This document shows positions 3,769 through 45,274 of a DNA stretch of 64,000 bases, piece after piece. Below the pieces are notes generated by a model. The model had not been told where the DNA came from. It made no database searches and worked only from the letters and a program-made list of their open reading frames with translations. The first letter of the stretch is position 1, and each line of letters starts with the position of its first letter. This stretch comes from Amoebophrya sp. A120 (Eukaryota > Protista > Dinoflagellata), in assembly GCA_905178155.1 (NCBI GenBank), contig CAJINV010000009.1, positions 855,415 through 919,414 on the forward strand, given 5' to 3'. The position numbers and the translations under genes are program-made.

Positions 3769-4623
3769 TCAATATGGTCGAGCACGCGACGGCGCGCCTC
3801 CACTAGTCCCGCCGAAATGGAAAGGACCGGCGGTGTTCTGGCCTATTGCGTCCAGCATGCGCGCAATCTGGGGGTCAAAGAAGTCCCGCCGCCCGTTGAA
3901 TATGTCGATCAGTTTTTCTTTTGCCTCGGCGGGTTTCAGATTACTGTAGAAAACAAGCCCACGAGCAGCACCACCGCTGCCAGAACTCCCTACTGGCATG
4001 GCAGCTGCCTCCGCGTCTGCGTATGCGATGAGTCGCTGCATGCCCTTGGTTGGGTTCTCGCACTTATTCTTGCACCAGTCAATGTAGCTCGGTGCGGTTT
4101 TCAAAATTTGCTCGAACGAAGTGCCCTTGTGCTTTCCGAAAGTGCACATCTCCAAGCCGCGGTTGGCGTCCGCGAAGGCGACCAGGCGACCCATGGCATT
4201 GTTGCTGCCCGACACGTTTTCCCGGCAGAAATCGACGTAATCGTGTTCGGATTTCACGATCTCGGAGAACAGCTTGCCTTTGTGTTTTCCAAAGCTACAC
4301 TCTTCGTCCTCAGGAGGCTCCTCTGTTTCATCCTCGGCTTGTTCTTCCTCGAGATCTCTGGGATTCATCTTGAACTGTTTATTCGCGAGGATCTTCGTAC
4401 GCCACTCCGGTACATCGTGGGACATCGTGATCTTCGTATCGGCCTTGGAATTATCGTCGCTGTTCATGGCCGTAACGGTCATGTAGGGGTGTTTGAAGGT
4501 GCACATACCTAACATCGGATCGCAACCACCTTCCATCTCTAGGTAGTCCCAGCACACGCCGACACCCTTGCTCTGCACACCTTCGGCGATGTAGCCCGCT
4601 TTCCACTCCTCGAAGCCGGACAT
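3769..4623 (-). CDS. Intronless paralog of the 1086-2880 gene (CCCH finger plus two FGKHKG repeats)
   Basis: Motifs CWDYLEMEGGCDPMLGMCTFKHP, CSFGKHKGKLFSEIV, CTFGKHKGTSF. Shares RLVAFADANRGLE with the paralog. Ends RARPY. Start taken at the ATG of MSGFEEW. Confidence 0.8.
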   Translation of the reverse strand: MSGFEEWKAGYIAEGVQSKGVGVCWDYLEMEGGCDPMLGMCTFKHPYMTVTAMNSDDNSKADTKITMSHDVPEWRTKILANKQFKMNPRDLEEEQAEDETEEPPEDEECSFGKHKGKLFSEIVKSEHDYVDFCRENVSGSNNAMGRLVAFADANRGLEMCTFGKHKGTSFEQILKTAPSYIDWCKNKCENPTKGMQRLIAYADAEAAAMPVGSSGSGGAARGLVFYSNLKPAEAKEKLIDIFNGRRDFFDPQIARMLDAIGQNTAGPFHFGGTSGGAPSRARPY

Positions 4624-5427
4624 TTTTGTCAGTAATGGCTGATAAATCGTCGAAATAGGACAAAATAAGATACGTCGTTGTAGTAACAAGGTTCGGGTTT
4701 ATCAAAGCGAATGCTTACTGTTAAGTTCTACAACTACAGGACGAATGTACTTTCTTATGTTTTTCTTTTTGCTTGGATGACGTTGATAAATCTCGACGTG
4801 ATTTCATCCGCTGCGAAAGAGAAAATCGAAGCGACAAGAATGCACTCGCTGGGTCGCGGCGACGATTTCTCTAATTCTGTCTCGACGTGGTCGTTTGTGT
4901 GATCAGGATCCTTTTTTTCATCAAGGGGAATAAAAACGAATCAGATCTTGTTCACGGGGGTGGTGAGAGACCACGATTACCATTTAGATGAAGCAAAACG
5001 ATACACCTTTCAATACATTCATAGTGCGTCGTCGTCAAGAGGCTAGAAGGTTTTTTAAGGTTTTCATCCCATCGGATTTCTTATCCTTGCAGTAGAAGCG
5101 AAGGACTTCATGAGGGAGCCCTACTTTTAGTTTTCTTTTACTATAGTCCGCCGTGATCTCTATCGCCGTTGCCGCATGCATCTTCAGCATCTCTCGACAA
5201 TAGAACATGTTCCCGACGGTTGTCGCCGTGCTGAGTACTATTGTACCAGCAGGAATTGCTTCTATCCGTATCTTCGCAAATAAGCTTGAATATGGCTTTG
5301 CTTTCCTTTCGAAGTAGAATGATATAAATGAATGGGCATGCCATTTGCATTTGGTGCGTTCCAGTTCCTGTTGCACTGATATAAAAAGGATCAAACTAGA
5401 TCATATCCCAACGCGCCTATGGATGAC

Positions 5428-11093: not shown

Positions 11094-14000
11094 TCACATC
11101 CCCATGTGGATGAGCTGCGAAGCATCTTTTCGAAGCTCCGCCTGCGTGCTCGAAATGAGGCTGTCCATGAGATTGTCGCTCGACTGTGCTGCAGCTCCTG
11201 CTCGTCCTCTCCCGTCGAGTGTGATTATCTCCGACGCCGTTTTCGTTCCACCCTTCGCGTTTTTGTTGGCGCACTTGTTTAGAATCACCTTCGGAACTCC
11301 GTACCAGTCAGGATGATGTTTGGTGTTGAGCAAAACTTGCTTTACGTTCTGCATCAGCGGCCATGCGGAGTGGTGTTCCTTGTGAAGCTCGTGGTGCACG
11401 AGGGCGCCTCCATTCGCGACTGCTGCGTCCATGTGTTTTTTCAGCCAAAAGTAGAACACCATCTGGCGCTGGTAGCGGGTGTACCCCTGCGCCAGGCCCA
11501 TTTTCGTCGCGGCGGTCAGGCGAGGTAGATTTTCCTGGTCCAGCTTCCGCTTGTTTTGCCCCAGAAAGCTCTTGCAGCCGTGGTCGGGGTCTCCGGTGCA
11601 AAAGTATCGTACTCGTAGTCGTTTTGCAATCATGCATGACAATCTTCTTAAGGTTAAGGTAAATCCGCATATACAAATTTTATTTGTCATGGTCATGCTG
11701 ACGCTGAGGAAATTTGTATATGCATTTAAGTATACGAGTACAATAATTTTGCAGTTCATACGGGGTAGAGGTACTTGTTCTGAAACTCCCGCATCGGCCA
11801 GTTCCAGTTCGCGACCGCGGATATTTTCGTGCCCACGTGCCCGCTGCGGTTCTGGAGGTCGGTGCACCGATCGAATTCGTTGATGACCAAGTGAAACTGG
11901 AAGCGTTTGAACACGTGGCAGGGCAGATAGTGCGCAACGTCGATGCCTGACGACGATGAACTTTCTTCATTCACATGGAACTCTTTGGGAACCAAGTCCC
12001 CGCGGACGTAGTCAAAGTCGTGGCCGCTCGGGTAGTCCTCGCGGTGGAAAACGTGCGGGATGGCAGTTTCCACCTTCTTCTGGTAATCCTCTTCTCGCAA
12101 TTCGCCGCTGGTCATGCTGTTCCCGAGGCCGATGTCGACCCAACCATCGCGCAACGTGCTGGGCTATCCTGTGCAAAAGTATCGTACTCGTAGTAATTGC
12201 TATGATCATGCATGACAAACATCCCTTTTTAGGGAAATCAGCATTACAAATTCCATTTTTCTTCTTGAAAAAATTTGTGATGCAATTTATACTAGTACGA
12301 TACTTACTTTTGCAATGCATATGGGCGACGTGCAGTCCTCGTTCTCGCTGCTGCCGGTACTGAGAGGAAAAATCCCCCCTCCCCATATTGAAAAGGCATG
12401 TTTCCAGGAAATTGCGTTGCGGATTTGAGGTCACAAATCACATCTGTCTTGCAAGAAGACAAGGGCAGAAGCTTCCGCCCCATTATGGAAGCGATTTGTC
12501 ATGCTGTTGGGCCTAAAGGGGGGCCGCTTGCCATGCTGCACTACTAGACCCATACGCCCCTACCTAGCCTGGGGATCTGGCCGCAGTGCCTTTGTGCAAT
12601 ACAAAGCTGATTTGTGGTCACAAATCAGCATCACAAATTTTCGTTTTGATATGGGGAGGGGGGATTTTTCATTTTGATAGCCGGGAAGGCAGTGGTGGTT
12701 CTTCCACTGAACCGAAGGGCGGAGGTGGTCTAGGAAGCCATAGCTGCCGCAACTCGACATGTGCACGTGCACTGGCTTGGTGCCGTCAGTGGCGGCCTCT
12801 TGCCCGTGTTTCGAACCTGATGAATCTTCATCGTCGCTCTTCAATACATATTGCGAGTACAGGCTCCAGCGCTGGACGAACTGGCACCCTCCGCTGTGCC
12901 CTGCGACAAAAATCTCGCTCGCGAGATTCGTTTTGCGCAGCGTGTTATGCATTGCAAAAGTGTATCGCGATCGCACTACTAGAAATAGATCAGAAATTTG
13001 TCCAGAAGACAAAATTGAATTCCTATATGCTGATTTACCTGAGAGTCGAGATGAAATGTCTATGCACAGATGCAATTTATACGAGCACGAAACTTTTGCA
13101 ATGCATACGTGTTCACGATCTCGTCCAGAACCCGGAAACTAGACAAATTTTCATTGCTGTCTTGCAAATCTTGGTTCGTGCTCTCGTACCCGCGTTGCGA
13201 CAGGTAGGTCGTGTCGGCCTTCCAGTACAGATGGGTCTTGGAAACCAAATTTCGGAAAAACGGGACCACGACCGCCACGTCGTGCAGCTGCCTGTCCTTG
13301 TGCAAAAACCCCGCCCAGCCATTGCAGGTGTCGTGAACGTAGCCGCCGAGCGTGGGGTGCCAGGTGCTGGCATGCCAATACTCGCTGATCACGATGACCA
13401 CCGGCCGCGGCGCGGTGCGCTGCAAAGTGAAATCGTCTCCGTTGACGAAATCGGGGAGGTGGGGGAGATTGGTGAACGCGGTGAAGTCCTTGTGCAAATT
13501 TCTGATGTTCGCCATCTTCTGGGGCCGACAGTAGTGCGGCAGGGGGCCTGCTACTGGTTTGGAGTAGTGAGAGTGATCTGTATTTCGATTTCCGCTGTGG
13601 TGATGATTTTTGTGGTTGGCTTTCTGCGGAGGGCCGACGGAGGGCGCGATGGGCGCGCCAGCCGGAGTGCCATCGCCATCAATGTGCGTGATTGCAGGAT
13701 CTGAGTCCTTGCCGAGGATTGTGGACGATGAAGATGAAGATGATGATGAACCAGCGCTGCCAGACGAGGGCACATCGACGACGCCGGGCCTGGGAACCAC
13801 GTCAGTCGCACTCAGCGGTCGTATATCCAAAGTCTCGTCTCCGAATGCAGCGGGTCCTGTTGTCGATTCGTAAAAGAACGGGGGGATTTCTGGGACATCA
13901 GAAGATGAATCTGTGTCGAGTTCTTGGCTACTTTCGTCAGCAACTATGCCCATGTCAACATCCTCCGGCCCGTCCTCGTCGATAGTGCTCACTGAATCAT

Positions 14001-15458: not shown

Positions 15459-18400
15459 TCAAAAAAATAAAGTAGGAAATTCAACTTCGTTCTCGTTTTC
15501 TTCAGAAACGTCGCCCTCCATGCCCATCTTTTTCGCCATATCGGTCCACGCGTCCAATTCTGCGGCAAATTCGCTGTCGGTCATCGTTTCTAGCGTTCTG
15601 TTAGAGGCCATGGCGGGTGACAGCTGCTTCTTCGCCAAAAACCGCTTCAAGAAGTGCAGACTCGCCTGGGGGCGGAACTGTGGCACCATGTGACCCGAGC
15701 CGTGAAAGGTCATAAACGTAACATTGTGCTCGTAGTTCACGACTTCTCCTCCAAACTGCGGACCCGCGTCGACCGCTAGCAAACCGGGCCCGAAGAGCGG
15801 AGCCTTGTCCTCCAGAACCGCCGCCGGTGTTGCGACCTGGTTGTTTTTTTTTTTGCGTTTGTCTTTCCTTCGTCCTCGTAGGCAATGAATGAACATGAAG
15901 TTGATCGTAGCATCGTAGTCCAAGGGCAAAATTGCACGCCCTTCTTTCTACGATAAAACACGCAAACATGCGAAAGTACACCACAGCATGGCGGTTCGGC
16001 GTGCTTAATCAAGGCAAAACGTGGAAAAAGCTGAAGCATTTTTTTTTTCCTAAAACAGCAGTGCCGCCCGGGGAAGAGGGGATGAGCAAACTTGTGCGCA
16101 CTTCTTTCTACGAAAAGCGAAAGCAAGCGAAAACACACCACAGCATGGCGCTTCGTCGTGCTTAATCAAGGCAAAACGTGGAAAAAGCTGAAGCCTTTTT
16201 TTTTCCTGAAACAGCAGTGCCGCCCGGGAAAGAAGGGATGAGCAAACTTGTGCGCACTTCTTTCTACGAAAAGCGAAAGCAAGCGAAAGTACACCACAGC
16301 ATGGCGCTTCGTCGTGCTTAATCAAGGCAAAACGTGGAAAAAGCTGAAGCCTTTTTTTTTCCTGAAACAGCAGTGCCGCCCGGGGACGAAGGGATGAGCA
16401 AACTTGTGCGCACTTCTTTCTACGAAAAGCGAAAGCAAGCGAAAGTACACCACAGCATGGCGCTTCGTCGTGCTTAATCAAGGCAAAACGTGGAAAAAGC
16501 TGAAGCCTTTTTTTTTCCTGAAACAGCAGTGCCGCCCGGGGACGAAGGGATGAGCAAACTTGTGCGCACTTCTTTCTACGAAAAGCGAAAGCAAGCGAAA
16601 GTACACCACAGCATGGCGCTTCGTCGTGCTTAATCAAGGCAAAACGTGGAAAAAGCTGAAGCCTTTTTTTTTCCTGAAACAGCAGTGCCGCCCGGGGACG
16701 AAGGGATGAGCAAACTTGTGCGCACTTCTTTCTACGAAAAGCGAAAGCAAGCGAAAGTACACCACAGCATGGCGCTTCGTCGTGCTTAATCAAGGCAAAA
16801 CGTGGAAAAAGCTGAAGCCTTTTTTTTTCCTGAAACAGCAGTGCCGCCCGGGGACGAAGGGATGAGCAAACTTGTGCGCACTTCTTTCTACGAAAAGCGA
16901 AAGCAAGCGAAAGTACACCACAGCATGGCGCTTCGTCGTGCTTAATCAAGGCAAAACGTGGAAAAAGCTGAAGCCTTTTTTTTTCCTGAAACAGCAGTGC
17001 CGCCCGGGGACGAAGGCATAAGCAAACTTGTGCGCACTTCTTTCTACGAAACGCGCAAACATATGAAAGTACACCATAGCATGGCGCTTCGGCCTGCTTA
17101 ATCGAGGCAAAAGCCGACAAGATGAAAGTCTCAAATGAAAATAGTCAAACTAGACAAACATCGCAGAAATATAATTTAAGTACTTTGTGATAAAACCAGG
17201 GTCGGTAGCCGTGTCCGTCCAGTTCTGCGAAGCCCAATCGCTCAATCGCGGTCCGCGTGCCCTCGTAGCTGACGCACGGGTCGGTATCCCCGTTCAGAAC
17301 AACGGTTTGTTCCAATTTGGGCGCGATGTCCCGGTAAAAGTCGATCATGGATTTCGCTCCTGGCTTCGCGCCCGCCCAGTTGCACGCCGCGTAGTCCTGC
17401 TCGTAGAGGAAGTGCACATCCTCGTCGTTCGGCCATGTCTTCACCGGCGCGTCGGTCACGTGCAGGGCCGCGCGGACCTCGGGGCTGTTCAGGTACTTCC
17501 CCATGTCACTGTCCTCCTTGCCCATCTTGTCCCCCGCGGGGGAAAACAACGAGTACGGGTTGATCCACTGCTTCGCCCAGCCCTGGTCGAGCTTGTTGCT
17601 CGCGCTTGTCTGGAACTTCCATATGGCGCTCTCAACTGTTACATTCTCAACTGTATACATGATTTGTCATGCTAAATTACCTTCAGCTTGACTATCAACG
17701 CCATCAAGCTGCTTCGCATGGAAAATTCTCAGACGGCCAAACAGGCTGAGAATCTGTGCCAAATCTGTCATGCAAGACGCGCAAGGTCCTTCCTTTCACT
17801 TTTGCCATTCTTGCATCACAAATTCATGTAACAGTTAAGAATGTAACGTTTGAGAAGTCCATATTCCGCCAGGCTCGCTTGCACTCAGCGCTCTCATGCC
17901 GGAACCGGTGCCCGGGACCCGAAATCTTGCTCTTCACGTGGTCCTTGTTGATCTCCACACTTGCAGGTGATGTTAATAACGCTGCTCCAGTATTTGCTGG
18001 GGCCGTGGTCTCGGTAAGGGCTACTTCCTGGTTTTGGTTTTGTTTGAATCTGGAGAGCAGCGTGGAAGTCGTAGAATTGATGCGTCGATTGAGTAAAGTG
18101 TAGAACTGTCCCTCCAGGAAGTGTTTCGGGAAGACGTTGGACAAGCTCGGACTGCGCGCTTGGCAGGTATTCCAGAGAAACTCGAACTCTTGGTCTTGGA
18201 CTAAGCCGTTCTTATCAAATGTAAAAATGTCTGGGTCTGGGACAAAGCAACCTGTCATGCTAAATCTGAAACATGTAGAAAACTGTGTTGCGTGATTACC
18301 AAAAGCTGTCCACATTTGACCTAATGATCGAGAGGCAGTTTCTTATGCAGGAAAGGCATGATAGAACACTCACAGAGCCTGTCATGCTATGTCCTACATA

Positions 18401-20126: not shown

Positions 20127-23100
20127 CTAGAGCGCCAACTCCGTAACAAGGGCATCGCGCCACTTCGCTACCGCCTTTACGAACTCGCGGTCTGTAAATT
20201 TCCGCATTCGTCTAGTTTTCGCTTCGATCGGACTCCCGCTGCCGTTTCCGTCCCGGGCGCTGGCCATATCGCTGCGCGTCAACTTTTGCAATTGCACAAA
20301 CAGGTCGGCACTGCTGGAAAACCGGAAGAGGTGCGGGTCGCGGCTGTAGTCCGAAAACAACACGCTCCAGTATTCAGCGTCATTTCTGAAAAACTTGGCA
20401 GCGGCCTCCTCTGTCTGCGTCATGTCCCCCCAGTGGAAAAAGGGCGACGTGTTTGGGGGGTACAGGTGGGTACCGTTCAGGGTCTTCTCGTCGATGAAGT
20501 GCCGTCGCTTGTGCAAACTGTGAATGCCACGGAAGAGGAAGAAGCGAAGGTGTTCGCGAACGGGGACAAAGATCGGGATGCCCATGCTGTAGAGCTCGTA
20601 GTACATCATGAGCGCGACGTCGTAAGGGTAAAACACCACTGCGAAAAACTTCCGCGCCATCTCCTCGTACGAGAGGCGGGGCCGCTGGTTCCGGACGTCG
20701 CTAAAAATAAGCTTCACGCTTGGTATGTCTGGGAGCCGTCCGGCGCCGTCTCCTGCGGAGGAAGAAGAAGACCACTTGCAGGTTTTTTTTTCGTTCGCCC
20801 TCTTTATCGGTACCTCAGGGAGCACTGAACCTAGTGCATTGTCCTCGAAAGGGGATTCTTGATCTTGTTTGGTACTACTTGAAATCGACGTCCTTTGTGT
20901 AGTTGACGTCGTAGTTTTTTCGTCGCGCGAGTCAGCAGGAACAGAAGTATCAGGTGAACTTGTAACTGTATCCTCCGTGTAGTACGTGAGCTGATTCAGC
21001 AAGCTGGCGGTATCCACGCAACTAAAGGGGCCCTTGTTGAGCAGAATGTGCACCTGGAGCACCTCTTTTTCCGGTGTGATCTCTTCGCCATCGGGCCCCC
21101 ACTCGCACTTCTTTTCCCGAAGATTATCGACTGGTAGATGATGTTGTTGTCCTAGTAAACTACCTGCACGAGCTACTAGCTGCTCGAAAACAGATCGGCT
21201 GGCTGGTGCCACCACGGCCCGCAGGCGACTTTTCACCTCGTTGAGCGGGTTGGACCACACGGCACCAGTGTGCTTCCCGAAAGCCCGGATATGGATGTGT
21301 CAGAGTTGAAATCGTCAAAGTTGAAATAATTTGTCATCGTATAAAATGCAATACACAAAGTCGTGACTCTATTGCAGAGGACGCACGGGAGGCAGATTAT
21401 AGTCCTGGTAAGGGTCAAAAGTTGGACTGCTGACTAGCATGACAGAAGGCAGCTCTTTTGCCCTAAACCGCAATACAGACTCGCTTGCAGGACCGGGAAA
21501 ATTTGTCATGCACCGACTACAAACTGCAGGTCTAACTGGCATCCATTTTATGCATGACAAATTATTTCAACTTTGTCGATTTCAAACCTGACACTCCCAT
21601 ACCGGATGATGGGCATGTAGAGCCCGGTTTGGTACCGGATCATGTGTGCCTTGTAGGGGTTGTAGGCCGCGACGAACGTGTATGGCGTTCTCAAACGTTA
21701 CATTCTCAACTGTGTAATGCAAGAATGGCAAAAGTGAAAGGGAAAACGTTGCGCCTTTTGCATTACAGGTTTGGAGCAGATTATAATGCTATCTAGCGCG
21801 TCGAGAAGTTGTCATTCGGAGAAGGCTTGATCGTGTTGAGAGTGATAGTGTTTTTGCATGACAAATTCATGTAACAGTTGAGAATGTAACGTTTGAGAAC
21901 GCCATAACGTGCGCGGCCGCTGCAGCGTCATCTCGCGAAACTTCCGGAACCACCACTCTCGCTCGCGCTTCCCCGTGATACCGGAAAGCAGGGGCTCGCC
22001 GATGTAAGCGATGATGGCCAGTTGCTCGTCGTGCGCGAACACGGAGCAGAGGATCGCGGGACTGGAGCAAATGAGAAGGTCGAACTTTTTCTCCTTCTTC
22101 TCCATCTGGTACTGCTCCCAGTGCGCCGCGGCCCGCTCGGCGAACTCGAAGAACTCCTCGATCCGCAGCTCGCCCACCACTTCCATGAAGCGCCGCGTGG
22201 GGCGGTACCCTGGCTCTCCGATCTGTGCGTGATCCTCGGCGCTAACCTCGCCCATCAGGGCGGCAATACCGACCGCATCTTTAGTGTTGGAGGAGCACGC
22301 GTCGCCGCCGCTGGTTTTACCCTTGCCGCAGTGTGCCGGGTCGTAGATTTCGTACACCGTTTCGACCGCTTTGTACTGGAGAAGATCCAGCGCTACGTGG
22401 TTCTCCAGCATGTACGACGCCTCTTGTGCCAAGGAAAAGTGCATTCCCACGTTGCAAACACGGAGGGTGTGCTGTTGGCGCTGTTCAAGCGTCAGTCCCT
22501 GCGGGGGCACGAAGTGGCTGTGTGCAAAAATCTCTTTCACCGAGAGGCCGCGGAGATTTGCTGCGCTCAGCAGGCCGGGAGCCAGTAGTTTGGGCTGATT
22601 GTAGTCAAAGGCGGGCGTTTGCGTTTCCTTTTCTATCGCAGATTTGTGCGGCTGGAAGAGAGTTACTGGACGCAATGCATTGGAGGCTTCATCTTCGGAT
22701 GCGAGCGCGAAAGCACTACTGGCCGCATTTTCCGCGTCGATCGGTGCAGGAGGGGATTCCTTACCTTCGGCTGCACGTGGAACCGCGCGAAAAGAACGGC
22801 TGTGTTGAAACAATTCGCTCTCGAGTCTGTCCATCATATCGTAGACCGTCCGGTCATTTATTGAGGAAATGCGTTCGCGTTCAAAAATGGTTCGAATTTC
22901 ATGATCATGCTGCTCGTCCGCATTTCTATTGCTACTACTTTCATCGGAGGGAGGGGAGCTATCACGGGCCGCGTTGTGGTCTCGGCCTCGGCCGTGCAGC
23001 AGCAGCACGTCGTAGAAGAGTTGCAATTCTTGGTCGAGAGTCCCTTCCTTTTCCATGTCCTCATCTGTTGCAGCATTGGCTGCAGTAATGACTTCCCCGT

Positions 23101-27171: not shown

Positions 27172-30100
27172 CTAGAGCACATATTTCGCTACGTCTGCTA
27201 TGTCTTTGATTTCCTGGCCTTTGTACCAAAATGGCAGTTCTAGTCCTGCTGCTGGCGGCGGAGGCGGCTGCTGTAAGTAGCACTTAACTTCGTCGCTCGC
27301 GGGTACTCCAGGTCCGGCAACCAGTCCAGGTGGGACATCTGGCGCACGTGCGACGTCTGGCCGTGTTTCACCGGCTGCTACCCGCCGCACCGCTGGATCA
27401 GAAGACCGTGGCGGCGCAACCTTTTTCTTCCCGGTATTGCGTCGATCGTCCGGAGCAGCACTGCTCGCTTCTCTATTTCTTGCGCTACTTCTCGCGCAAC
27501 GTTGATGGTGGGGCGCGCTCGTGTCGATCTCGTTGATGCGCGGAACTGTATGGAAGTGTGAGGTTCGAAATTGACAAAGTTGTCATGCACAAAATACAGA
27601 GCACAAAGTGGAAGTGCCTGCATCGGCGGGGAGCAGCAGCAGGCAAAGGAGGCCCAATATTAGAATTAGCCTTTTTGGGGTTCTTGGCGGGAATAGATAT
27701 AAAGTCGCAGGTAGGAGTAGGGCTGCGAAGGAGCATGACATTTATTTTTGATTACAGTCCCACTCCTTCTTCTGCAAGCCCCCTGCATGAGAAACTGGCC
27801 CCCTGGCCAGGAAGGTATCTGGGTCATCGGGGGCTTCCGGATTCGCATTCAAAGCTTATCGCAGGAGCCTGCGGGCCGCCGCGGGCTCCACCACTTCCCC
27901 GCGGCCCTAAAGGGCCGCGGACAACTACTGTCGCCCGCGGCGGCCCGCAGGCTCCTGCGATAAGCATTGAAGGCGAAATCCGGTCTGCTATTTCGCAGCG
28001 GGGCATCCTCTCTAGCCCCCTGCGTGACAAACTGGCCGCCTGGCCAGGAAGGTATGCGGAAAGCCGAAAACCCGCGAACCCTTCCGGGCAACCAAAATCG
28101 GCCATTTCAGACGCGGCGGAGGTCCCGAATTGGTGCTCACAACCCCGGCCAAATCGGGATTTTGGGACATGCCTCCGCGCGCTTGTAGTGCGTTTTTTTT
28201 TTCCCAATCGCGATGGTACGGCGCAAGCGCGCGCCCGCCGGACCGCCCTTGGCGGCCAGTTTGTAAGCCTGCCGAGGGTTCTCGATTTTTTTCAATTTTC
28301 GCTCTTTTTTCTGGTTCTTAGGTGGCCGAAGGGCTCTGGACATTTTCACCGCCCGCAGATGACTGGCAGTTTTGAAGCCTGCGGAGGGATTGCGCTTTTG
28401 CGCAATTTTTCATCTTTTTTCATTTTCCAAGTGGCCCGGGCGACCTGCACATTTTTACCGCCCGCATCTGACTGGCAGTTTTCAAGCCTGCGGAGGGATT
28501 GCGCTTTTGCGCAATTTCTCATCTTTTCTCATTTTCCAAGTGGCCCCAGCGACCTGCACATTTTTACCGCCCGCATCTGACTGGCAGCTTTGAAGCCTGC
28601 GGAAGGATTGCGCTTTTGCGCAATTTCTCATCTTTTTTCATTTTCCAAGTGGCCCGGGTGATCTGCACAAAATCCGACGATTGCTTCCCCCCACGTTATA
28701 AAGCAATTTTTCGCCATTTTTTTCCAACTTTTCCCAGTTACGAAGCGGCCCAAGGCTTCCGAACAGGTCGCGGGCCTGCTGCTCCAACGCAGCTGGCCAG
28801 CGGGCGGAGCAAAAAATAGTCCGCCTCTTTTTCAGATACTAAGTGGGCCAGACCGCAAAAATGCTCTTTTTTCACCTTCTCCCGCTTGGTTTCTGCCGTT
28901 TTTGCGTCATTTTTGACCTCCTGGCCATTTTCCCATCTGGTCCGCTTTTTTTCCCTTCTCCCGCTTCATTTCTGGCCATTTCCCTGACCTTCACGCCTCC
29001 CGGCGGTTGCCCTATATGGTAACGGCAACTGCCTTCGCGCTGCGTTTGCTAAGCAATATCGCAAGCGCGCAGAGCGCGCGCGCCGGCTTCGTGGGCCGGC
29101 GCGCGCTCTGCGCGCGCGCGCGCACGCATTTGGTTACCAGATAAAGTCGCAGGTAGGAGTAGGGCTGCGAAGGAGCATGACAAAAGCAGCCTCCTCAGCC
29201 ATCACTTTCCGGCCGGGCAGGCTTCCCGGTCGAGCAAAAGTGATGGCCAGGAGTTCCATGGCCATCGCTTTTCGCTCGGGCAAAAGCAATGGCCAAGAAG
29301 AGCTTCTTGGCCGTCGCTTATTTGCTTTTGGCCATCACTTCCATCCCGGCCGGGAAAAAGTGACGGCAGAGAGCCCCTTGGCCATCGCTTTCCGGTCGGG
29401 CAAAAGCGATGGCCCGGAGCTCCTTGGCCATCACACACTTCTCGCTCGGGCAAAAATGATGGCCGCGAGCTCCTTGGCCATCAGTTTTCGCCCGGGCGAG
29501 CAAAGCGATGGCCAAGAGCGCCCTGGATGGCCATCACTTTTCTTTGGTGGCCGGGCAAAGGTGATGGCCGAGAGCTCGCTGGCCATCATTTTAATTCCGC
29601 CCGCAGGGCAAAGGGGATGGCCAAGAGCTTCGTGGGCATCGTTTTTCGCTCGGGCAAAAGTGATGGCCCGGAACTCCTTGGCTATCACTTTTGGCTGTCA
29701 CTTTCCGGGCGGCCAAAAGTGAAGCCAGCCGGCCGCCAAAGCCTCCCCAAAATAACCCTTGCGGCTGGCCCCCTTTGCTTTGCTTGCCAGGCGCGCAAAA
29801 GGGGCTGACGCCGGGCCGGCGTCCTGGACGCCGGACCGCAAAAGCGCTAAAGCGGCGAGGCCGCTAGGGCAAGCGCAGGCCGGCCCAGGCGCATCAATCT
29901 CCCTCGAGGCAGCCCATGCACAAAGCAAAGCCGCACCAGTCCCGCGGGGGGGCGCGCCGGAAGGTCGTGTGTGGGTCCGTGTAATCTGTCCTCGCTATGC
30001 TTTTGCTTTCTCTTGCGGCACCGCCTCCCCCTTCTTCTGAGGCGAATACTGGTGCCTTTTGTGCCTATCTCTGTCTGTGCCATGCCTCCACCTTCTAACC

Positions 30101-33100
30101 AAGCATGAGCGTTTGCGCTCCATGTGTAGAATTATTTTTCAAGCTACTAGCCCCAGCCGGCGTCCTGGACGCCGGCGTCTAAGGGGCTAGTAGATATAAA
30201 GTCGCAGGTAGGAGTAGGGCTGCGAAGGAGCATGACAAAAGCAGCCTTGAGCTTGACCTTGAGCTTGACCTTCCAAGGCCTGCTGAGAAAATAAAGGCAT
30301 CACTTCCCAAAGCATTACCCGGCAAGCACCCGCTTGCACCTAGTTCGGCCGGGGGGACTAAAAACCGGACCGCAGTCGCTGCGAAGCGGCAACAGGTGGG
30401 TCGCCACGTAAAAGAAAGGCCAACATGCGCTGCAGACACAAAGCGCAAGACCGTCGACGGCCCGGAGGGCCGGCGACGAGAAATTTTCGCCCATGCCAGC
30501 TACTCGACCGGCAAGCGCAAAAACACAACCGGCCGAACGGGCATGGGGAGAGTCCCGAGGGCGAAAACACCGCGCCCGCGACGAGGAAAGCGCTATCTTT
30601 CTCACTTTAGCACCGATCTCGTCAATTTGTGACGGCGATCAGAGTTCGGTCAGATTTAGGTCAGAAATCCAGAATGTAATATAGGGACAGGATTTCTGAC
30701 CCAAATCAGACCTAATTCTGACCTCCGTCACAAATTCTGAACAGAGGCCATGATCTTCGTCACAAATCGGATCAGGCCCACTGATCTTCGTCACAAATTG
30801 TTGATCTCCGTCACAAATTGTTGATCTTCGTCACAAATGGTTGATCTTCGTCACAAATGGATGATCTCCATTTCAAATGGCTGATCGCCATTTCAAATGG
30901 GTGATCTCCATTTCGAAAGGCTGAAAGCCATTCAAAGTTGACGACTTCCATCCCAAATCATCCCACATCAGGCTACTGCCACATTTGCCATCCCCAGACC
31001 ACCACGTAGGCCTCGACCTTGCTTCGGCGCCTAGCCAAAGCTGAAGTCTATGGCGCCCGCACCAGGGTAGTGCGCTGCTCCATGTACCCACGTAGGGCGT
31101 AGTCAACGCATTACCGCGGTGAGGCTGTGACGCGGAAGAGAATGACCCGAAGGCACTGCTGAGATAGCTCCTGCGACGCCACCGAGTGCATCTGAAGAGC
31201 GCCCCACTTTCAAAAACCCTGTCCGTCACAAATCCGTCAACATTTGGTCAACTTTCTATTCTGCGCCGGGTGGTACAGCGTTAAAGGAGTAGGGCTGCGA
31301 AGGAGCATGACAAAAGCAGCCCTCCTTGCCCCAAACAGCACGACACCCTGGATCTGCGTGCTCCCAAAATCCGTCATGCGAAACTGTGGCTCCAACTGGT
31401 AGTTGTTGTATCGATTTTATACATTGCAAGTCGTTTCAACTTTATCGATTTCGAATCTGGCACTCCCATAAACTGATCCGTTGTAGTTAAACCAGTTGTG
31501 AACGAGGACAGCGAAGTGGGATAGATTTTGACTTGGCTTTCTCGGAAATCTTCCAATTGGTTTTGACTTTGACGTTTCCGCTGTCACGAATGTGCTCACG
31601 ATCTCTTCCAATTGCTTTCCCTTCTGCCCGAACAGAATGTTGTGGACCTTCTTCCACTGCGTCGACGAATGAAAGAGTGCCTTGGCGTCTTATCAAATGT
31701 AAAAGTGTCTGGGTCTGGAAGAGTCATGCTGTTTTTGCATGACACAGAAGGTCTGGCATGGAAGCTCTAGCATCACAGGTTCCGAGAAGCCTCCGCAATG
31801 CCGAATCCGCATGACAAGCCCCCATTTTGGTGACAGAAAGTGAGCAGCCTTGTTGCCTATGCATCAGAGATTTTTGTGTGTTCTGAAATGCGCATCACAA
31901 GTTACATCCTTCCAGACCCAGACACTTTTACATTTGATACGTCCGGCGTCGGAAACATAATCAGAGCAACGGCTATGAACTGCAGATCTGCCTGAGTTTC
32001 TCTGAAGGAATAAAAGCAAAGCTCTCGTCAGCGTCATGTTGAATTGTGCACGATCAAGACGGCGCTTCCTGTTCCACATGATGACTGCATTTTCATCGCA
32101 CGAAGAAAAAACGCTGCGCATTTCTTGGTCAAGTAAAACAGATTTTTGTGGAGTAATTATGCAAGGGAAGCACTGCAAGTCCTACAGGAGTCTCGCTCCA
32201 GTTCATTACTTACCCAGACATGTTTGCAATGCATAGCGGCGACCGGGCCGCGAATATTCCACGAGGACCGATGTCGTGAGCGCTCGTTGGCAGCCTGAAT
32301 ATTGCCCAGAAGTCTTTCCAACATTCCGCGAATTTGAATTTCGTCTTCAACTGCGAGAGGGTTTCTCTCGATGCCTTGACTTGCTCTGAAGGCGTCTCTC
32401 TCTGATATTAGTTCGGGAAGAAAAGCCAACATATCCAGTGCAAAAGTATCGTACTCGTACTTTACTAATTGCAGTCATCATGCATGACAGATCTACTTTC
32501 TAAGGGAAAACAGCATCACAAATTGCATTTTTGTTCTTGAGCAAATTTGTCATGCAGTTTATACTAGTACGATACTTTTGCAATGCATAACACACGTTTT
32601 GCAGCAACTCCACCGACATGCCAACCAGGACCTCCGGCTTCAATTCGGGACCCGCATGCTTGGGAGCCGCATACTCGCGAAGCAGTGCGCGCAAGTAAGA
32701 AGCTTGCTTCTGACGCTTGTTTAGTCGATGCATAGCCTTTTCGTTGCGCAGGATACTACTAGAAAGAAATCCCGCCACGTGCTGACCATTTTGATTCAAC
32801 TCTTCCAGCAGATTTTTTTGGAAAAGTTGAGTTGCCGTCTTCGCGGCAGGGCCCCACGGTTCCTCTGATAGCGTAAGGTGACTGAGAAAGAGCATGCGAT
32901 CCTGATCGGGGTCCGCCAGGAAGTTGTTCAGAAACACATCGCGCCAGGCCCTGGATGGGTCACTCTCAATGCTTGTGCGCAAGACATCGTGTGACGCCAA
33001 CGTACGTATTTGCTGTGCATCTTCAGCAAGATCCTCCATGCTTGTGGTTCTGGTCTCCGACGGCGAAGACATGCAAGCGGCTCCAGAGTGTTGCTCCACA

Positions 33101-37121: not shown

Positions 37122-39221
37122 TCAAGTACTTTTTCTTTTCACACGCCTCGGATGTTTCTTGAAATGTTTTCTATTTTTCCATTCCTGCTTGCGCGTACGT
37201 TTGCTTTTGCAATCGAGCGCACCACCAACGATTTCTCGCACCTCCCGCTTCGATTTCTCGTCCAAATCACCCTTGTAGATTTCCTCTAGCGCGGCGCGCA
37301 CTTTCTGCAGATTTTCCCTGTCTTCGGGGCCGAGGGTAATCGAAGAAAACTTTTCGCGCAAGAGGTACCAGGGTAGCGCGCCAATGGCTTGCGGGTAAAT
37401 GTGCTCCATCTTTCCTTCTGACTGCATCTGGGTGTTGTGCTCGTTCAATCTCTCGTTCGCTTTCCGCCACTCTTGCAGCATCCTCTCAGCATCAAGATCG
37501 CGCAGCAACCCGACTGCCGACCGCGCGTTGTAACTCGGGCCGGCTCGGCATCTCTGTTGCTCATTCCAAAGCGACGCATGTGGAATGCCCGGACCGGGTG
37601 GAAAGATTTCTGGAACTACAACGCTATCACTTGATAGGAGGCTAGCGTCGCGGTAACGCTCCGCCATTTTCTCTTGATTTGTGTGTCCCCAAAACATTAA
37701 GACAAAGTTTCCGTCAGGTGGCGTTACCGCCAGGTCGGCGCCCTCCTCGCGATGCAGTTTGTCGGCCAGACAGGCAGTAGGGATAATGTGCGGCGCACCA
37801 CGGGCCAAAGGTCCGTGTTGCAAACTCGTCTCTATATTGCACGGAACTGGCGCCCCGGAAGCATCGCGCGCCGTAAAATTGTTTACACCCTTGTAGGTTT
37901 GCGCGTTCGCAATCACTAGCTGGCGCGCAACATTGCCCTCCTCGTTGCTTCGAGGTACCCACCACGAGACTACTTGACCCAAAGCCCCGCCTGCGGCACC
38001 GGTCCGGCCCCGGCGCTGGCCTGGAGATGAAATCCCCGCTGCATTGAACCACTGTGCATTCGCGGCGTAGTTGTTGTCCCTGTGGAAAAACGGCACCCTG
38101 AAACTTTTATCGAAAGGAGTAATCGAAACGTCCTCGCCATCCTCCCAGAGGACGTGGCTTAGTCTCGCTGGTGGCAGCGCGATCAGAAGGGGGGGCGCAC
38201 TGCCACTGTGAAAGCTTTCTCCTTCTTCACTTCCGCGGCGATTATTCGCAGGCTGCCGTGCAGCAAGAGCGTCCGTGATCGAAGCTGCAATGTTCTGTGC
38301 GTGTGATGTGAGCCAGCCTTTTGCATACTTTCGAGCCGGTGGATTATTTTTTGGATAGCCAGCAGGTATGAAGTTGTCACCCTCCAGGTTGTCAGGCAGC
38401 TCTATGATGTCTCGGGAAAGTAACGCCCATCCCTGCGTAGAAAGGTTTCCAGCGACTTCTGCGATGTCAGAAGTCGCATTGTCCGCAGAAGACAACACCC
38501 GCGCACCGAAATCTTGCAAAGCCTTGTCGGCAACGAGCTTGGCGGCTTTGGTCGGCATCATATCGTTTTCTGTGTCTACCTTAGACGCGTACTGAAGGTC
38601 GTGGAGTCTTCCTTCGCTTTGTGTAGCGCCGTACGGACCCAGACCACCACCTATAAGTAATTGTATATTCCATTTTACGCTGCTCAACCAATTAACTTAA
38701 CAAATATTGTTTACGACTTCTACAACTAGACCTGGTTCTACATACTAGCTGCTGCTGATGTGCATTGGATTTCTAGCACGAAATGAAAATGATTCGAGCT
38801 CCAGTAGCTGCTTCTATCAACTTGACATCTACCCAAGTAACACCCTCATCCTGAGATAATATTTCAGGATGACGGTGTTACTTCTGTGAAACATATTATT
38901 TGAGCAGATTCATATACCAGTAGGGCAGCTGTCCGTCAGTCTCAGCTGTGGGGGCTCGTCCTCCCTTAGACCAACATTAAGACGTTGTTGAACGGCTAGT
39001 TCTTGTAGCCCCGCGATGCCTGCGGCGACAACAAAAATGGCTGTCTGCTTGCCCAAACAACCGCTCGCTTCACGTTTCCCCGCAGGCCTTGACGGAGCCC
39101 GAAGTTGCGTTCGGAGAGCTGCGGTGAATTGGAACATTTCACAAAAACTGCCGACCGCAACGATAATGAACCAAAAGTAAATCGCACGCCAGCGGACTCC
39201 TTGTTGCGCACTCATTTTCAT
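37122..39221 (-). CDS. Secreted/type II membrane hypothetical protein; 2 exons (GT-AG intron 38651-38917)
   Basis: The N-terminal hydrophobic exon 38918-39221 joins the 521-aa ORF as CPTGGGLGPYG. Confidence 0.65.
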
Positions 39222-40749: not shown

Positions 40750-43700
40750 TTATCCTCCAGCTAGTCCCTGGTCCTCATCTTCGTCGACGCGACCATTAGT
40801 CCGGCTGTTCTCGCCGCGAGTCATCGTGCCTTCGCCTTCGATGTCTTCGTTTTCGCCAGCGCCGCCTTTTCTCTTCTTTTTTCGCTCACGAAACAGTTGC
40901 CATTTGAACGCAAGCTTGCCCTGCACCGGCATATCCTTCATTTTTTCTGCGAAGCTACCACTGGTCGTGTTCTCACTGTTCTCGACTTTCTCCACATCGC
41001 TCGGAAGGTAGAGCGGCAATTCGTCCTGCTTTTGCAAAAGGCACCCGCCCTTCGCGTGCTTCCGCACCTTCAACCGGCACTCGCCGAGCAGCACGGGCTG
41101 TTTCTGGGTCAGTTCCGCGGTGAAGTCCAAATCGTTCTCGTCGTCGTTGGTTGTTCTGCCCGTGTCGTACACTTGAACCATATGCATTGCAATCGTATGA
41201 TCTATCGTAGTGGTGCTTGGTAGAACTTGCAATGCAAATTTTCTCAGAACACAAACAGCAACAGGGAAAAATGGAATTTGCCATGCTGACCCAGCTTCGA
41301 GAGCAGATTTCTCATGCATAACTGCAATTGAAGAAGTAGTACCACGGGTACGATAAAAGATATTAGTTTTGCGCCGGATAAAACACCGCCTCCAGTGACT
41401 TGCCGTCGTACGGAATTCGGGTCGTGTAGCGAAAATACGGCTTCGTCGTGCCGGAGACGACCTGCGATTGCCGCGACGCATCGCCCAACTTAATCACCGC
41501 GTAGGTGGAGGTACTCTTTAGCGAGTGTGCGCTATCCAAGAAAAAAACATTGTAGGTGTGACTTTTTTATTTTTGGAGGAACAGCATTGCAAATTTGTCT
41601 GGCATGACAGCAAAAACCTGTCATGCGCAGATAGTACGTGAAAACGCCCTTTAATGGACCCTACGATGCATGCCAAGCATGACTGACACACGCAATCATC
41701 TTGAGTGTTGCGCATCACAAATTTACACTAACAACGTTTTTTTCTTGCATATGCGCGCACCACCTGGACCAGCGCGTGGTCCTGTTTCATCACCTCCTGT
41801 TCGTAATCCTCCGTTTGCGTGTGCTCGATCAGGTCACGGGGCACCGTATAATTGATGTCACCCGAGGACATGTTCTTATTTGTTCCACCGTCCAGTCGCG
41901 ACTTCTTCCGCTCTTCCACTTTCACGGAGAGGTTCCTGGCGGCGAGTTTCGCGTTGAACAAGGAAAAGAGCTCTTTCGTGCGGTCAACTACACCGGTCGT
42001 CGGGGACGAGGACGTTGTATTTGCGACCGCAGTAGAGGACGACGATGCACCCGCGGCGGCTCCTGCGGCCGCCGCCGCAGTTGCGCCGGCAGTTCGTCCC
42101 GACGGTGACGTCGGCGATACCGTGTCGTCCAGCTCCTGACGCAAGCTGGACATCATGGTGGCGGGGGAAATGTTCTGGTCCCGATCTTCAGTCCCAGCGG
42201 GGGAGTTGGAATCGTCCCTCGTCATGTCGAAGTACTTTGCGGCTCCTGCTGCTGCAGTTGTACTAATAATCCCCCCTTGACTGTTCGCGTTCTTCAACAT
42301 CTGGTCACTGGCACGCCCCGCGTTCAAACTTCTCGTCTATGCATTGCAACGTAGTCGTATCGGAGGAGTGGGAATTGCATTTTTCTATAATTTTTTCGAA
42401 TGGAAAAAGCGAATCTGTATTTGTGATGGTGCATGAGCTTGGAAACCAAATCTCTCATACTGTACTGCAGTTTGTACGAATACGATATCGATGCTGTTGC
42501 AACGCATACTGTTATCGCATCCTCCTCGTCGTCCAGCTGAAAGAGCACCGTCTTTGCCTGCTCGGCCGCGTCTGCTCGAAGCTGCGAGAGCGGACTGCTG
42601 CTGAACGAACGCGGGGGGCTGTTACGGTAAATTTTCGCGATCTCCGACTTGGTGATCTTCTCTTCCAGTGTAGGTTCCTCTTCGACCACAACCTGCGGCC
42701 CCAAAAGCGGAGCGGTCTGCTCGCCCTCCGCGCGGGCGGTCAGGGAGCCCACCGGATGGTGCCGGTGGCGACGGGACTGATGACGTTTTGCGTTTCCATT
42801 TTCGTTTTTTCTTTTCAATTTTCTCCTCCAGAAAGGCAGACCAGAGCAAAGAGCTTGCAGCCGAAATTTTGTACTCAACATTTGAAGGAATTGAAATTAC
42901 TTAGTATGTGAAAAAGAAGATCATGTGAAAAGATATGAGCCATGAAGGAAACAGATCCAGTACGGCTTCTACCGTTGCAGCAGAAGCTCCTGCTTTTTCC
43001 GCACCGCTACCGAAGAAGTGCCACGCCAGCCCAAGGATCAACAAGCTGCACAACCCACCAACCATTTGCACGAGCGCCGTCCTGGACAAACAGATGCTGT
43101 CCGTAATCTTGAGAAAAGACGCATGAATTTGCCTAGAGCTTTAACACCCGTTAGCATGAGAAGTGGTGAATTTGTAGTGAATTTTGCATGACAAATTGCA
43201 GATGAGTCCGCCGGGACATTGTCCCTCTTGGCCTTCTGGGAAGTGGGTTCTGCACACCGCAAAAGTCAAGGCTTATGCGGCGGGCAACTTCTAGACATGG
43301 CCTGGGTGCCGTTCTTTGGCCATGTCTATTCGTCTCCCTGTGCTCGTATAAGAGCACTGCAGCAGCCGCGGCAAAGACGCCAAAAAGACAGTGCTGCGAA
43401 GCACATGCAATCAGGCAAGAAGGCGCGAAAGCAAGGGCAAAAGGACCAGGCCAAGAGCTCTGACGCGTCTATCCGGCAGGCGCGTGAGCTCTCCCGGCCT
43501 TTTCGGCAGAATATAAAGGGGCTGAGGGGGGCAGCAGAGGGCGCTTGCCTTTTCCCCTCGGCCCCACTTCCCAGGGCCTATTTGCGGACTTCCTTGAGCA
43601 CTTTTCTGCGCTAAAGTTTGCTTATCACGGTCGAAAAGGGGCGCCCGGTGAATTTTGGGGTGAATTTTGAAAAGGGCGGCGGTGAATTTTGGCCTCCGGC

Positions 43701-45274
43701 TCATGTTCAAAATGCGCTAGCGCATGGGAAACTCCGGGTTTTGGAGCTCCAGAAAAGTTTCAAAAAAAGGAAAAGTCCCAAAATTCACCAGGAGAATTCC
43801 TGACCTGGGAATCACGTCGAAGAAGACTCGAGGACCCGAACAAGATGAGGCAGGAACACAGCTGGGAAGAAGCAAGCTACAGAGCAAACAAGCAGGCGAT
43901 GCTAGCATCCATTGCAACATGTCTCCAGACATCCAAGCCGAGCCAGCCGGAACCCGTGAGAGCTACCCACTTAGATGCTCACCCAGTGCCCCTCTCCTGT
44001 TGAGGCTTCGGCCCCCTCCCTCTCGACCCACTATGAACTCCGCAGAGGCAGTGTTGTATTGTGAGACCGCCAGAGGCCGCCTTTACTTCTTGGCAACGCA
44101 CCAGGCAGCTGCAAAGACGTGCGTCTCTACTTTAGGCTCTGACAGTGAGCGTCACCATCCAAGTGACAGCCTTTCAACTACTTACACGGAACGCTGACTG
44201 CCTGGCGTCCTTCTCGCGCTCTTCATATGCCCTCTAATTCATGCATCATGCCACGCAATACAAATTCACTGCAAATTCACCCTTCTGTATGTTAACGACC
44301 GTCCAAGACATAACCATTTGCACGAACGCCGTCCTGGACAAACAGATGCTGTCCGTAATCTTGAGAAAAGAAACTTCTGGGGTTGCAGCCGACTGCAGCG
44401 AACTTGTACTCGCCGTCCTAGCATGCGTCGTGTCGTCCGCGACCGGTGGACGATTGCTGGCAGTCGGTGCATCATCATGTGCGCTTTCTGTTCGCTGCTC
44501 CCCCGACAATTTCGTACTAGTCCTTTGAGGACCTCCAATCAAGAGCTGAACCCCGTGCAGAAAATCGCTGCCCACCGCGGCAGAAATTTGCTGGAAAACA
44601 CTCCAGCTGGCAAACGGCGAGGGAAGTTTGTGCTCCCGGTCGTCGAACACCAAATACGGCTTTTCCCGGCGGAGCTTCGCTAGCACCACATCAGCTGCAG
44701 AAGGGTTTCCCGATAATTTCGTAGTGGAGCTGGTGCTGGAGCTGGTGTCACTTCCTCCTTGCTTCTCTTTCATCTTCCCAATCGCAATTGGTTTGGTGTT
44801 GTCTCGTAGTTGTCCTGCTGCAGCTTGTTTACTGTGCTGGAGGCTCGCCGTCTCGCTGGCACCCGACTCAACAAACTTGGTATTTTTAGTACGGTGCGGG
44901 TCCTCCTGCTCCTGCTGAGGATCGTGCCGATTATTTTTGCCATCCTTTGCGCGGTACTGGTAGTAGTTGTGTCGCCGCAACAGCAGGGCCGACTGTGCTG
45001 CGGTGGATTTACGTTGATGCTGTGCTGCTGAACTCACCGGCGAGGCATGATGCTGGTCGCTTGACGGTGTCAAAGCAGCAAGCACCTGGTGAGGATAGCT
45101 AATGGGAAAGGAGGCTGTCAGAAAGCAGACTGACCTCAACCTTCTTCCCTGATTTCGTCGCAGTTTCATCTTCGACGCAGCGCTTCGAGGTGCAGCGCCA
45201 AGTGAACGCTCACTATCACTACCCATTGCTGCTCTGCAGACAAAGAACTCAAACGTCGACATAGATGAATACAT
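40750..45274 (-). CDS. Membrane-anchored protein with a C-terminal C2 domain; multi-exon
   Basis: After removing elements: LVQVVRAHSLKSTSTYAVIKLGDASRQSQVVSGTTKPYFRYTTRIPYDGKSLEAVFQVYD...LLGECRL...GKLAFKWQL (C2 pattern). TM segment MVGGLCSLLILGLAWHFF. The short intron near 42880-42945 is unresolved. Confidence 0.7.
41181..41380. mobile_element. Introner, family B in reverse orientation; TSD AACCA/AAACA
   Basis: Left end TATGCATTGCAA, right end TTTTGCGCCGGATA. Removal restores the C2 frame. Confidence 0.8.
41533..41751. mobile_element. Introner, family A; TSD TGCGC
   Basis: TATCCAAGAAAAAAAC...GTTTTTTTCTTGCATA. TGCGC at 41528-41532 and 41752-41756. Homologous to 2059-2273. Confidence 0.92.
42338..42508. 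mobile_element. Family-B-like introner with an eroded TSD, forming a canonical GT-AG intron (42337-42509)
   Basis: TATGCATTGCAAC...GTTGCAACGCATA. A GT-AG splice gives EEDAITTRSLNAGR in frame. Confidence 0.75.
43120..44312. mobile_element. Expanded TIR element (family F) with a GC-rich interior, flanked by a 60-bp exon duplication
   Basis: Subterminal IR GTTAGCATGAGAAGTGGTGAATTTGTAGTGAATTT vs AAATTCACTGCAAATTCACCCTTCTGTATGTTAAC. Right terminus ATA. 43060-43119 equals 44312-44371 with one mismatch. Confidence 0.75.

Follow-up and report, generated by a model that had tools for sequence, protein, structure and literature searches.

The introners described from Amoebophrya are non-canonical introns that carry terminal inverted repeats (TIRs) and have a short direct repeat where they meet the exon, and many families occur within one gene region (PMC7789003; PMC12130899). 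Farhat et al. (2021; PMC7789003) analyzed introns of 40–1000 bp. The stretch studied here, called the window, is 64,000 nucleotides of Amoebophrya sp. A120 (GenBank assembly GCA_905178155.1, contig CAJINV010000009.1, forward-strand positions 855,415 to 919,414; coordinates below count from its first base). Its TAT-type elements, which begin with TAT and end with ATA, match the introners described in PMC7789003. One of them, unlike those described, is swollen from ~350 to 3,922 bp because three elements with long duplications are nested in it, so that three inserts alternate with four copies of a short piece of the introner's own interior. These repeats are, rather probably, long target-site duplications left by three separate one-ended insertions of unrelated nonautonomous mobile elements into a single introner stretch of ~56 bp. 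Rather than a cassette array built for a purpose, the structure is likely an unusual pile-up of transposons.

One-ended retroviral integrations and some bacterial insertion sequences (IS) yield long duplications. In Chlamydomonas reinhardtii, the Helitron2 elements CRe-1/2/3 occur as 5'-truncated, 3'-intact copies with duplications of 7–19 bp and up to 44, 50, 93, 242, and 443 bp (Bao and Jurka 2013; PMC3627910). Replitron-1 of the same alga makes variable duplications, and its author suspects a common host cause across element types (Craig 2023; PMC10288648). The end pattern of Helitron1 comprises 5'-TC, CTRR-3', and a 3' subterminal hairpin, with insertion between A and T and no target duplication (PMC3627910). 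Very long duplications are made by the Dualen and R9 long interspersed nuclear elements (LINEs; PMC9977147), and several stepped duplication lengths occur in the one family IS481EU (PMC10045372). One-ended insertion with long duplications is known from Chlamydomonas Helitron2; the literature searched contained no case of it across element classes within an introner. That search, which covered few subscription papers, returned no earlier report of long-duplication stacks inside introners. The word "nested" is absent from the main text of Gozashti et al. (2025; PMC12130899), and the available parts of that article and its supplement (supplementary files 13–14 aside) contain no IS3EU label and no Helitron label on Amoebophrya rows.

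The window is eukaryotic, with minus-strand genes split by many short TAT...ATA elements, mostly with a 5-bp duplication. Among 15 TAT-type elements tabulated, the duplication is perfect in 10, agrees at 4/5 bases in three, and at 3/5 bases in one; the end of the 15th was set wrongly. Five base pairs is therefore the norm, from which duplications of 39 and 59 bp depart. The swollen introner is flanked by AACTG on both sides (5/5 bases agree) and has the properties by which Amoebophrya introners are recognized, i.e., TIRs, a direct repeat of 3–5 nt, removal from RNA, and membership in a repeated family (PMC7789003; PMC12130899). A first-pass annotation, made from the letters alone, had delimited this element and a 312-bp sibling, and both are confirmed (table 1). 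Once the three inserts and their duplications are taken out, the outer introner is 350 bp, and this empty form aligns with the sibling from end to end (220/371 columns identical; alignment score of 241 versus a maximum of 99 among 100 shuffles). Excision of the introner plus one 5-bp copy fuses two open frames (read from a join 6 nt longer), as had been claimed. The RNA junction that the annotation suggested looking for is present in one contig, from a run guessed to be RNA, which joins 27543 to 31471 and thus lacks the element and one 5-bp copy; the contig comes from another sample, in which the precursor may not contain all three inserts. Two raw RNA runs yielded 95 and 2 reads, every one of them partial, and none falls on an insert.

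The 8-base motif GCATGACA, formerly singled out as a feature of the repeat, is not special to it: each of its 25 occurrences in the window is within a TAT-type element, and these elements belong to several unrelated families, making the motif a candidate shared signal for transposase binding or splicing. Among the other TAT...ATA elements, that at 60529–63265 is large (2,737 bp, with a 5-bp duplication) and noncoding, with dense hairpin arrays inside (60858–61725). Left and right tips are unlike, or seemingly of different families, in the introners at 12165–12321, 12358–12679, 31974–32235, and 32432–32589, which suggests end exchange between elements.

The four repeat copies show no substitution in any of their six pairwise overlaps (28–52 bp). 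In this respect the earlier account of four identical copies stands, but their lengths are unequal (47, 48, 56, and 37 bp): the repeats are nested duplications of 39, 56, and 37 bp, with no single fixed unit. The annotation's proposal of repeated insertion at one site with long duplications of local sequence is supported. The diverged homolog that it reported in the sibling also aligns, and because that counterpart is identical to the 56-bp segment at only 43/62 columns, the repeat is ordinary, diverged introner interior. Copy 3 retains five bases that are absent before copy 2, where insert 1 removed them; insert 2 is therefore older than insert 1. Of the two copies of the 56-bp segment, the left one contains insert 1 and the right one insert 3, and the place of insert 3 in the order cannot be derived. 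In DNA run X1, single-copy contigs stop at 27723 and restart at 31292, where 31-letter words become shared with copy 3. As these stops fall where predicted, the short-read data contain several repeat copies of these extents but not another near-identical introner.

Insert 1 ends at 29143, not at 29140 as first assigned, and its final three bases, ATA, are its own terminus; with this terminus, the duplication at insert 1 is exactly 39 bp. A single metagenome scan, for which the query was the left junction of insert 1, gave a single locus (L001). Its sequence is 89–94% identical to insert 1 over 27740 to 28832, and upstream, where the repeat is not present, it has ~98 further bases that start with TAT. 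This extension holds a perfect 21-bp inverted copy of the right end in the window (chance matches in 0 of 100 shuffles). Judged from these two sequences, insert 1 is a ~1.5-kb TAT...ATA element, of which the window copy has the right end and lacks the left end. Three bases are common to its end and the target, and its left junction has a 1-base microhomology. Insert 1 resembles IS3EU/GingerRoot in its TA..TA termini and inverted repeats, the left end being read in L001 and the right end in the window, but its duplication is 39 bp instead of 6 (the norm for TAT-type elements in the window being 5 bp) and, being noncoding, it has no transposase to compare (PMC10045372).

The relative of insert 1 in L001 is placed behind the start of another TAT-type introner, which supports the earlier suggestion that a spliced element offers a tolerant site. 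Its right end is lost to a LINE that interrupts the element and to the contig end, so that its other flank is unreadable. The LINE itself (L001 4414–7657) has a 1,059-residue open frame with a match to Pfam RVT_1 (E 3e-10), what we take to be an RTE-like motif at the C-terminus, and a trinucleotide tail. A LINE inside a relative of insert 1, itself behind an introner start, amounts to three levels of nesting. The annotation had allowed that the repeat might be the inserts' own terminus. This is not the case, because the repeat is missing from L001 and, on insert 3, a contig of depth 63 (two-fold) stops at 31283, directly before the repeat, so that the other copy of insert 3 does not continue into it.

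Insert 2 is Helitron1-like in its TC start, CTAG end, 3' hairpin, and right junction at A^T of the target, but unlike Helitron1 it has a 56-bp target duplication. The left junction is not at A^T; it coincides with the edge of the insert's hairpin array, so the TC may be due to chance. The combination of hairpin and CTRR is also found inside the element at 61 kb and once near 52.4 kb, and the pattern alone is therefore not unique to insert 2. Insert 3 has a 12-bp tandem unit at its left junction and contains a variant of the introner subterminal motif eight times. An inverted repeat between both ends was found in neither insert 2 nor insert 3 (local scores of 16). Apart from the corrected end of insert 1, the earlier description of three unrelated cassettes holds: each insert has its own tandem repeats and hairpins, and BLASTN at E ≤ 1e-3 gave no match between the inserts or from them to the rest of the window. 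An Rfam search yielded six matches at E ≤ 1, every one far below the gathering score. In run X1, the summed contig depth is ~28–34 in the host flanks, 1,361–2,087 in insert 1, ~200 in insert 2, and 74–87 in insert 3, i.e., ~50–70, 7, and 2–3 times the single-copy depth (contig depth is not true copy number). All three inserts are clearly repeated sequence, and the introner flanks are single-copy.

A similar signature occurs at 43 kb, in an exon. In a scan of the window for 30-base direct repeats spaced 120–6,000 bases, this pair is the only extra case beyond introner-family matches, internal element repeats, and the array. The duplicated 59 bp are coding sequence, and the two copies differ by 1 mismatch in 59. 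Excising the insert plus one 59-bp copy restores the minus-strand frame. From the sequence, a splice between a GT that closes the upstream copy and an AG 12 bases into the downstream copy is predicted to leave 45 extra bases (15 duplicated codons) in frame. The termini of this insert and of insert 1 have no match among the viral contigs. Across the four inserts (three in the introner and the one at 43 kb), the more regular end is on the same side in all four, none has a poly(A) or short-repeat 3' tail, and none of the four junction contexts has a T-rich tetranucleotide target. The first-pass annotation likened the locus to cassette arrays. In the sense of CRISPR (clustered regularly interspaced short palindromic repeats) or integrons this likeness is not supported, as the inserts are multicopy mobile-element sequence, the repeat length is unfixed, and a similar signature exists at this unrelated exon site.

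Like the CRe Helitron2 copies, insert 1, and likely the 43-kb insert, have one end intact and the other truncated, with a long and variable duplication, and short extra sequence at the truncated junction, a feature of CRe Helitron2, counts as a further likeness (PMC3627910). Unlike in those copies, the signature here is on a symmetric TIR element and a Helitron1-like element, the targets differ from TTTT, and a single site received three events. Replitron-1 is similar in having one exact and one imprecise end and variable duplications, but its short terminal direct repeat is not defined here, and an HUH gene was not seen (PMC10288648). In contrast to IS3EU and IS481EU, the long duplications here, of 39 and 59 bp, accompany a lost left tip (PMC10045372). 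Dualen and R9 LINEs share long variable duplications and truncation at one end, whereas the inserts here are noncoding DNA-element sequence without tails (PMC9977147).

The one-ended reading is based on the exact right end and lost left end of insert 1, and on the similar arrangement at 43120–44312 with its 59-bp duplication. Also in its favor are the repeated inserts between single-copy introner flanks, the Helitron-like ends and A^T right junction of insert 2, the insert-3 contig that stops before the repeat, the 5-bp norm among TAT-type elements, and the precedent of Helitron2 in Chlamydomonas. We infer the following mechanism of insertion. The right end of each element would be joined exactly to one target strand by that element's enzyme (for insert 1, a DDE transposase; for insert 2, probably a Helitron-type Rep), freeing a 3' end on the left flank. 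A host polymerase would extend this freed end by 37–59 bases along the intact strand, and the extended end would then be joined to the left end of the element, possibly with trimming (98 bp in insert 1) or filler. An equivalent route, which would look alike in sequence, is an ordinary insertion with a later break at the left end that is repaired from the right flank. Because each event would copy the target and not destroy it, the target would remain available. The outer inverted repeats are intact and splicing removes the whole, which is likely why the pile-up is tolerated.

Several points weigh against one-ended insertion of three elements. A single other copy of any insert was read (L001), with one flank, and none with both flanks. 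Insert 1 is the only one for which truncation is established; insert 2 may be whole, and insert 3 is without a recognizable terminus. The left end of insert 1 could have been lost after insertion, and no transposase or Rep partner was found in the window. The depth-based counts of repeats call for the caution given above. Triple hits per genome are roughly estimated at 0.5 at the density of the window and at 0.0005 at one-tenth of that density; therefore, neither chance nor a hotspot is established. The GGCTGC/GCAGCC stem that the annotation saw in the repeat is present, with a z of −4.25 against shuffles for copy 1, but it is weak evidence since 22% of 1,500 random 56-base segments of the window fold as stably, which weakens the idea of a hairpin as the target. 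Lastly, no listed contig spans any repeat copy. This would fit an assembly chimera joined through the repeat, an explanation we find scarcely credible given that the single-copy contigs end and begin again precisely where their 31-letter words turn shared with copy 3.

The right junctions are a TIR tip in insert 1 and the 43-kb insert and CTAG at A^T in insert 2. By target-primed reverse transcription at a preferred site, a LINE reverse transcriptase could have copied in element RNAs, such as that of an excised introner; this one machine would cover duplications that are long and variable, truncation on the same side, and the use of one site. LINEs are capable of long duplications (Dualen and R9; PMC9977147), one with RVT_1 and a tail is present in L001, and the regular ends on one side and the three bases common to insert 1 and the target would fit. 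We consider this origin unlikely, however, as those right junctions point to the elements' own enzymes, a poly(A) or repeat tail is absent from every insert, and the LINE in L001 landed at a T-run, unlike the targets of the window inserts. The fact that three of the four right junctions are on element-type termini also makes it quite unlikely that no transposase took part and that a fragile site was broken repeatedly, or a stalled fork switched templates, with pieces of abundant repeats copied in by microhomology at both ends. Such a process would explain the slippage-type short repeat at the left junction of insert 3, the 1-base microhomology at that of insert 1, and the unclear terminus of insert 3, and the target can fold into a hairpin, although one no stronger than 22% of window segments.

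Duplication lengths of 37, 39, 56, and 59 bp are close to 5 + 10.5n, as if a TA..TA-type transposase occasionally made a stagger of several helical turns (5, ~37, and ~57 bp), like IS481EU at 4, 15, and 25 bp, with the left end lost later; IS481EU is kin to the TA..TA IS3EU/GingerRoot group (PMC10045372). The phase test is not significant (p about 0.18, n = 4), the left tip is gone in both TAT-type cases, and the Helitron-like insert is not covered, all of which makes this account very improbable. The layout of repeat, insert, and repeat, with copies identical where they overlap, could also suggest a recombination site with cassettes integrated and shuffled by a recombinase. This is already largely refuted, and we give it next to no weight: the copies are unequal in length, the repeat is absent from the relative of insert 1 in L001, and its sibling counterpart is so diverged. 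Moreover, among 18 window open reading frames (ORFs) scanned of 192 listed, there was no credible recombinase match and no match above cut-off to Cas or integrase genes; the one match to Integrase_1 was sub-threshold, on a tandem-repeat ORF 11 kb away.

Coordinates of the locus, its sibling, and the 43-kb case are given in table 1. Elsewhere in the window, a tandem array at 15926–17112 has ~7 copies of a 156-bp (52-codon) unit, with one minus-strand frame open for 364 codons; an isolated, near-perfect palindrome of 49 bp lies at 38835–38883; and two paralogous ORFs, at 1086–2078 and 3769–4698, have ExoX-like_C matches.

Table 1. Positions of the swollen introner, its repeat copies and inserts, the sibling introner, and the insertion at 43 kb.
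Feature	Position	Strand	Remarks
Sibling introner without inserts, 312 bp	21290..21601		Repeat counterpart at 21394-21453
Left 5-bp target-site duplication of outer introner	27544..27548		AACTG, sequence comparison
Outer TAT...ATA introner, 3,922 bp	27549..31470		Imperfect 34-bp TIRs
Repeat copy 1, 47 bp	27694..27740		Interior of the original introner as far as the left junction of insert 1
Insert 1, noncoding TIR element	27741..29143		Right inverted repeat intact at 29119-29143; ~98 bp of left end gone
Insert 1 hairpins	27842-27977 and 29060-29122		Part of insert 1
Insert 1 tandem array, 109-bp unit	28257-28669		Part of insert 1
Repeat copy 2, 48 bp	29144..29191		39-bp duplication at insert 1 plus last 9 bp of segment duplicated at insert 2
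Insert 2, Helitron-like ends	29192..30190	+	Starts TC; ends CTAG; 56-bp duplication
Insert 2 array of 46-53-bp hairpin units	29221-29695		
Insert 2 3' hairpin, 9-bp stem	30156-30176		CTAG end 14 nt later
Repeat copy 3, 56 bp	30191..30246		Full duplicated segment
Insert 3, unclassified	30247..31284		37-bp duplication
Insert 3 hairpin	30624-30736		
Insert 3 20-bp tandem array	30782-30936		
Repeat copy 4, 37 bp	31285..31321		Duplication at insert 3, runs on into original interior
Right 5-bp target-site duplication of outer introner	31471..31475		AACTG, sequence comparison
Second case, left copy of 59-bp exon duplication	43061..43119		
Second case insert, 1,193 bp	43120..44312		TAT-type right end, subterminal inverted repeat, no TAT tip at left junction
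Second case, right copy of 59-bp exon duplication	44313..44371		

We tentatively raise a wider possibility, which we regard as rather unlikely, that one lineage-wide host pathway completes half-done DDE and HUH insertions by copying 35–60 target bases. It would regenerate the landing site and grow self-extending arrays in spliced introners. Hits in exons would add ~15–20 duplicated codons and a new intron, as predicted for the 43-kb insert, offering a route from intron gain to rapid protein change in these parasites.

For genome scans, the locus cautions that a layout of repeats and spacers in a eukaryote may be a pile of target duplications, and the 43-kb case is an inexpensive means to test if proteins are lengthened in frame by such insertions. 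The growth of an introner elevenfold with its removal from RNA kept would be a constraint on how non-canonical introns are recognized, i.e., by their ends. If one-ended insertion is true, it would be the host or the site, and not the element, that determines the long duplications. This would bear on a question raised by the Helitrons and Replitrons of Chlamydomonas, namely why an odd insertion signature is common to unrelated elements of one host.

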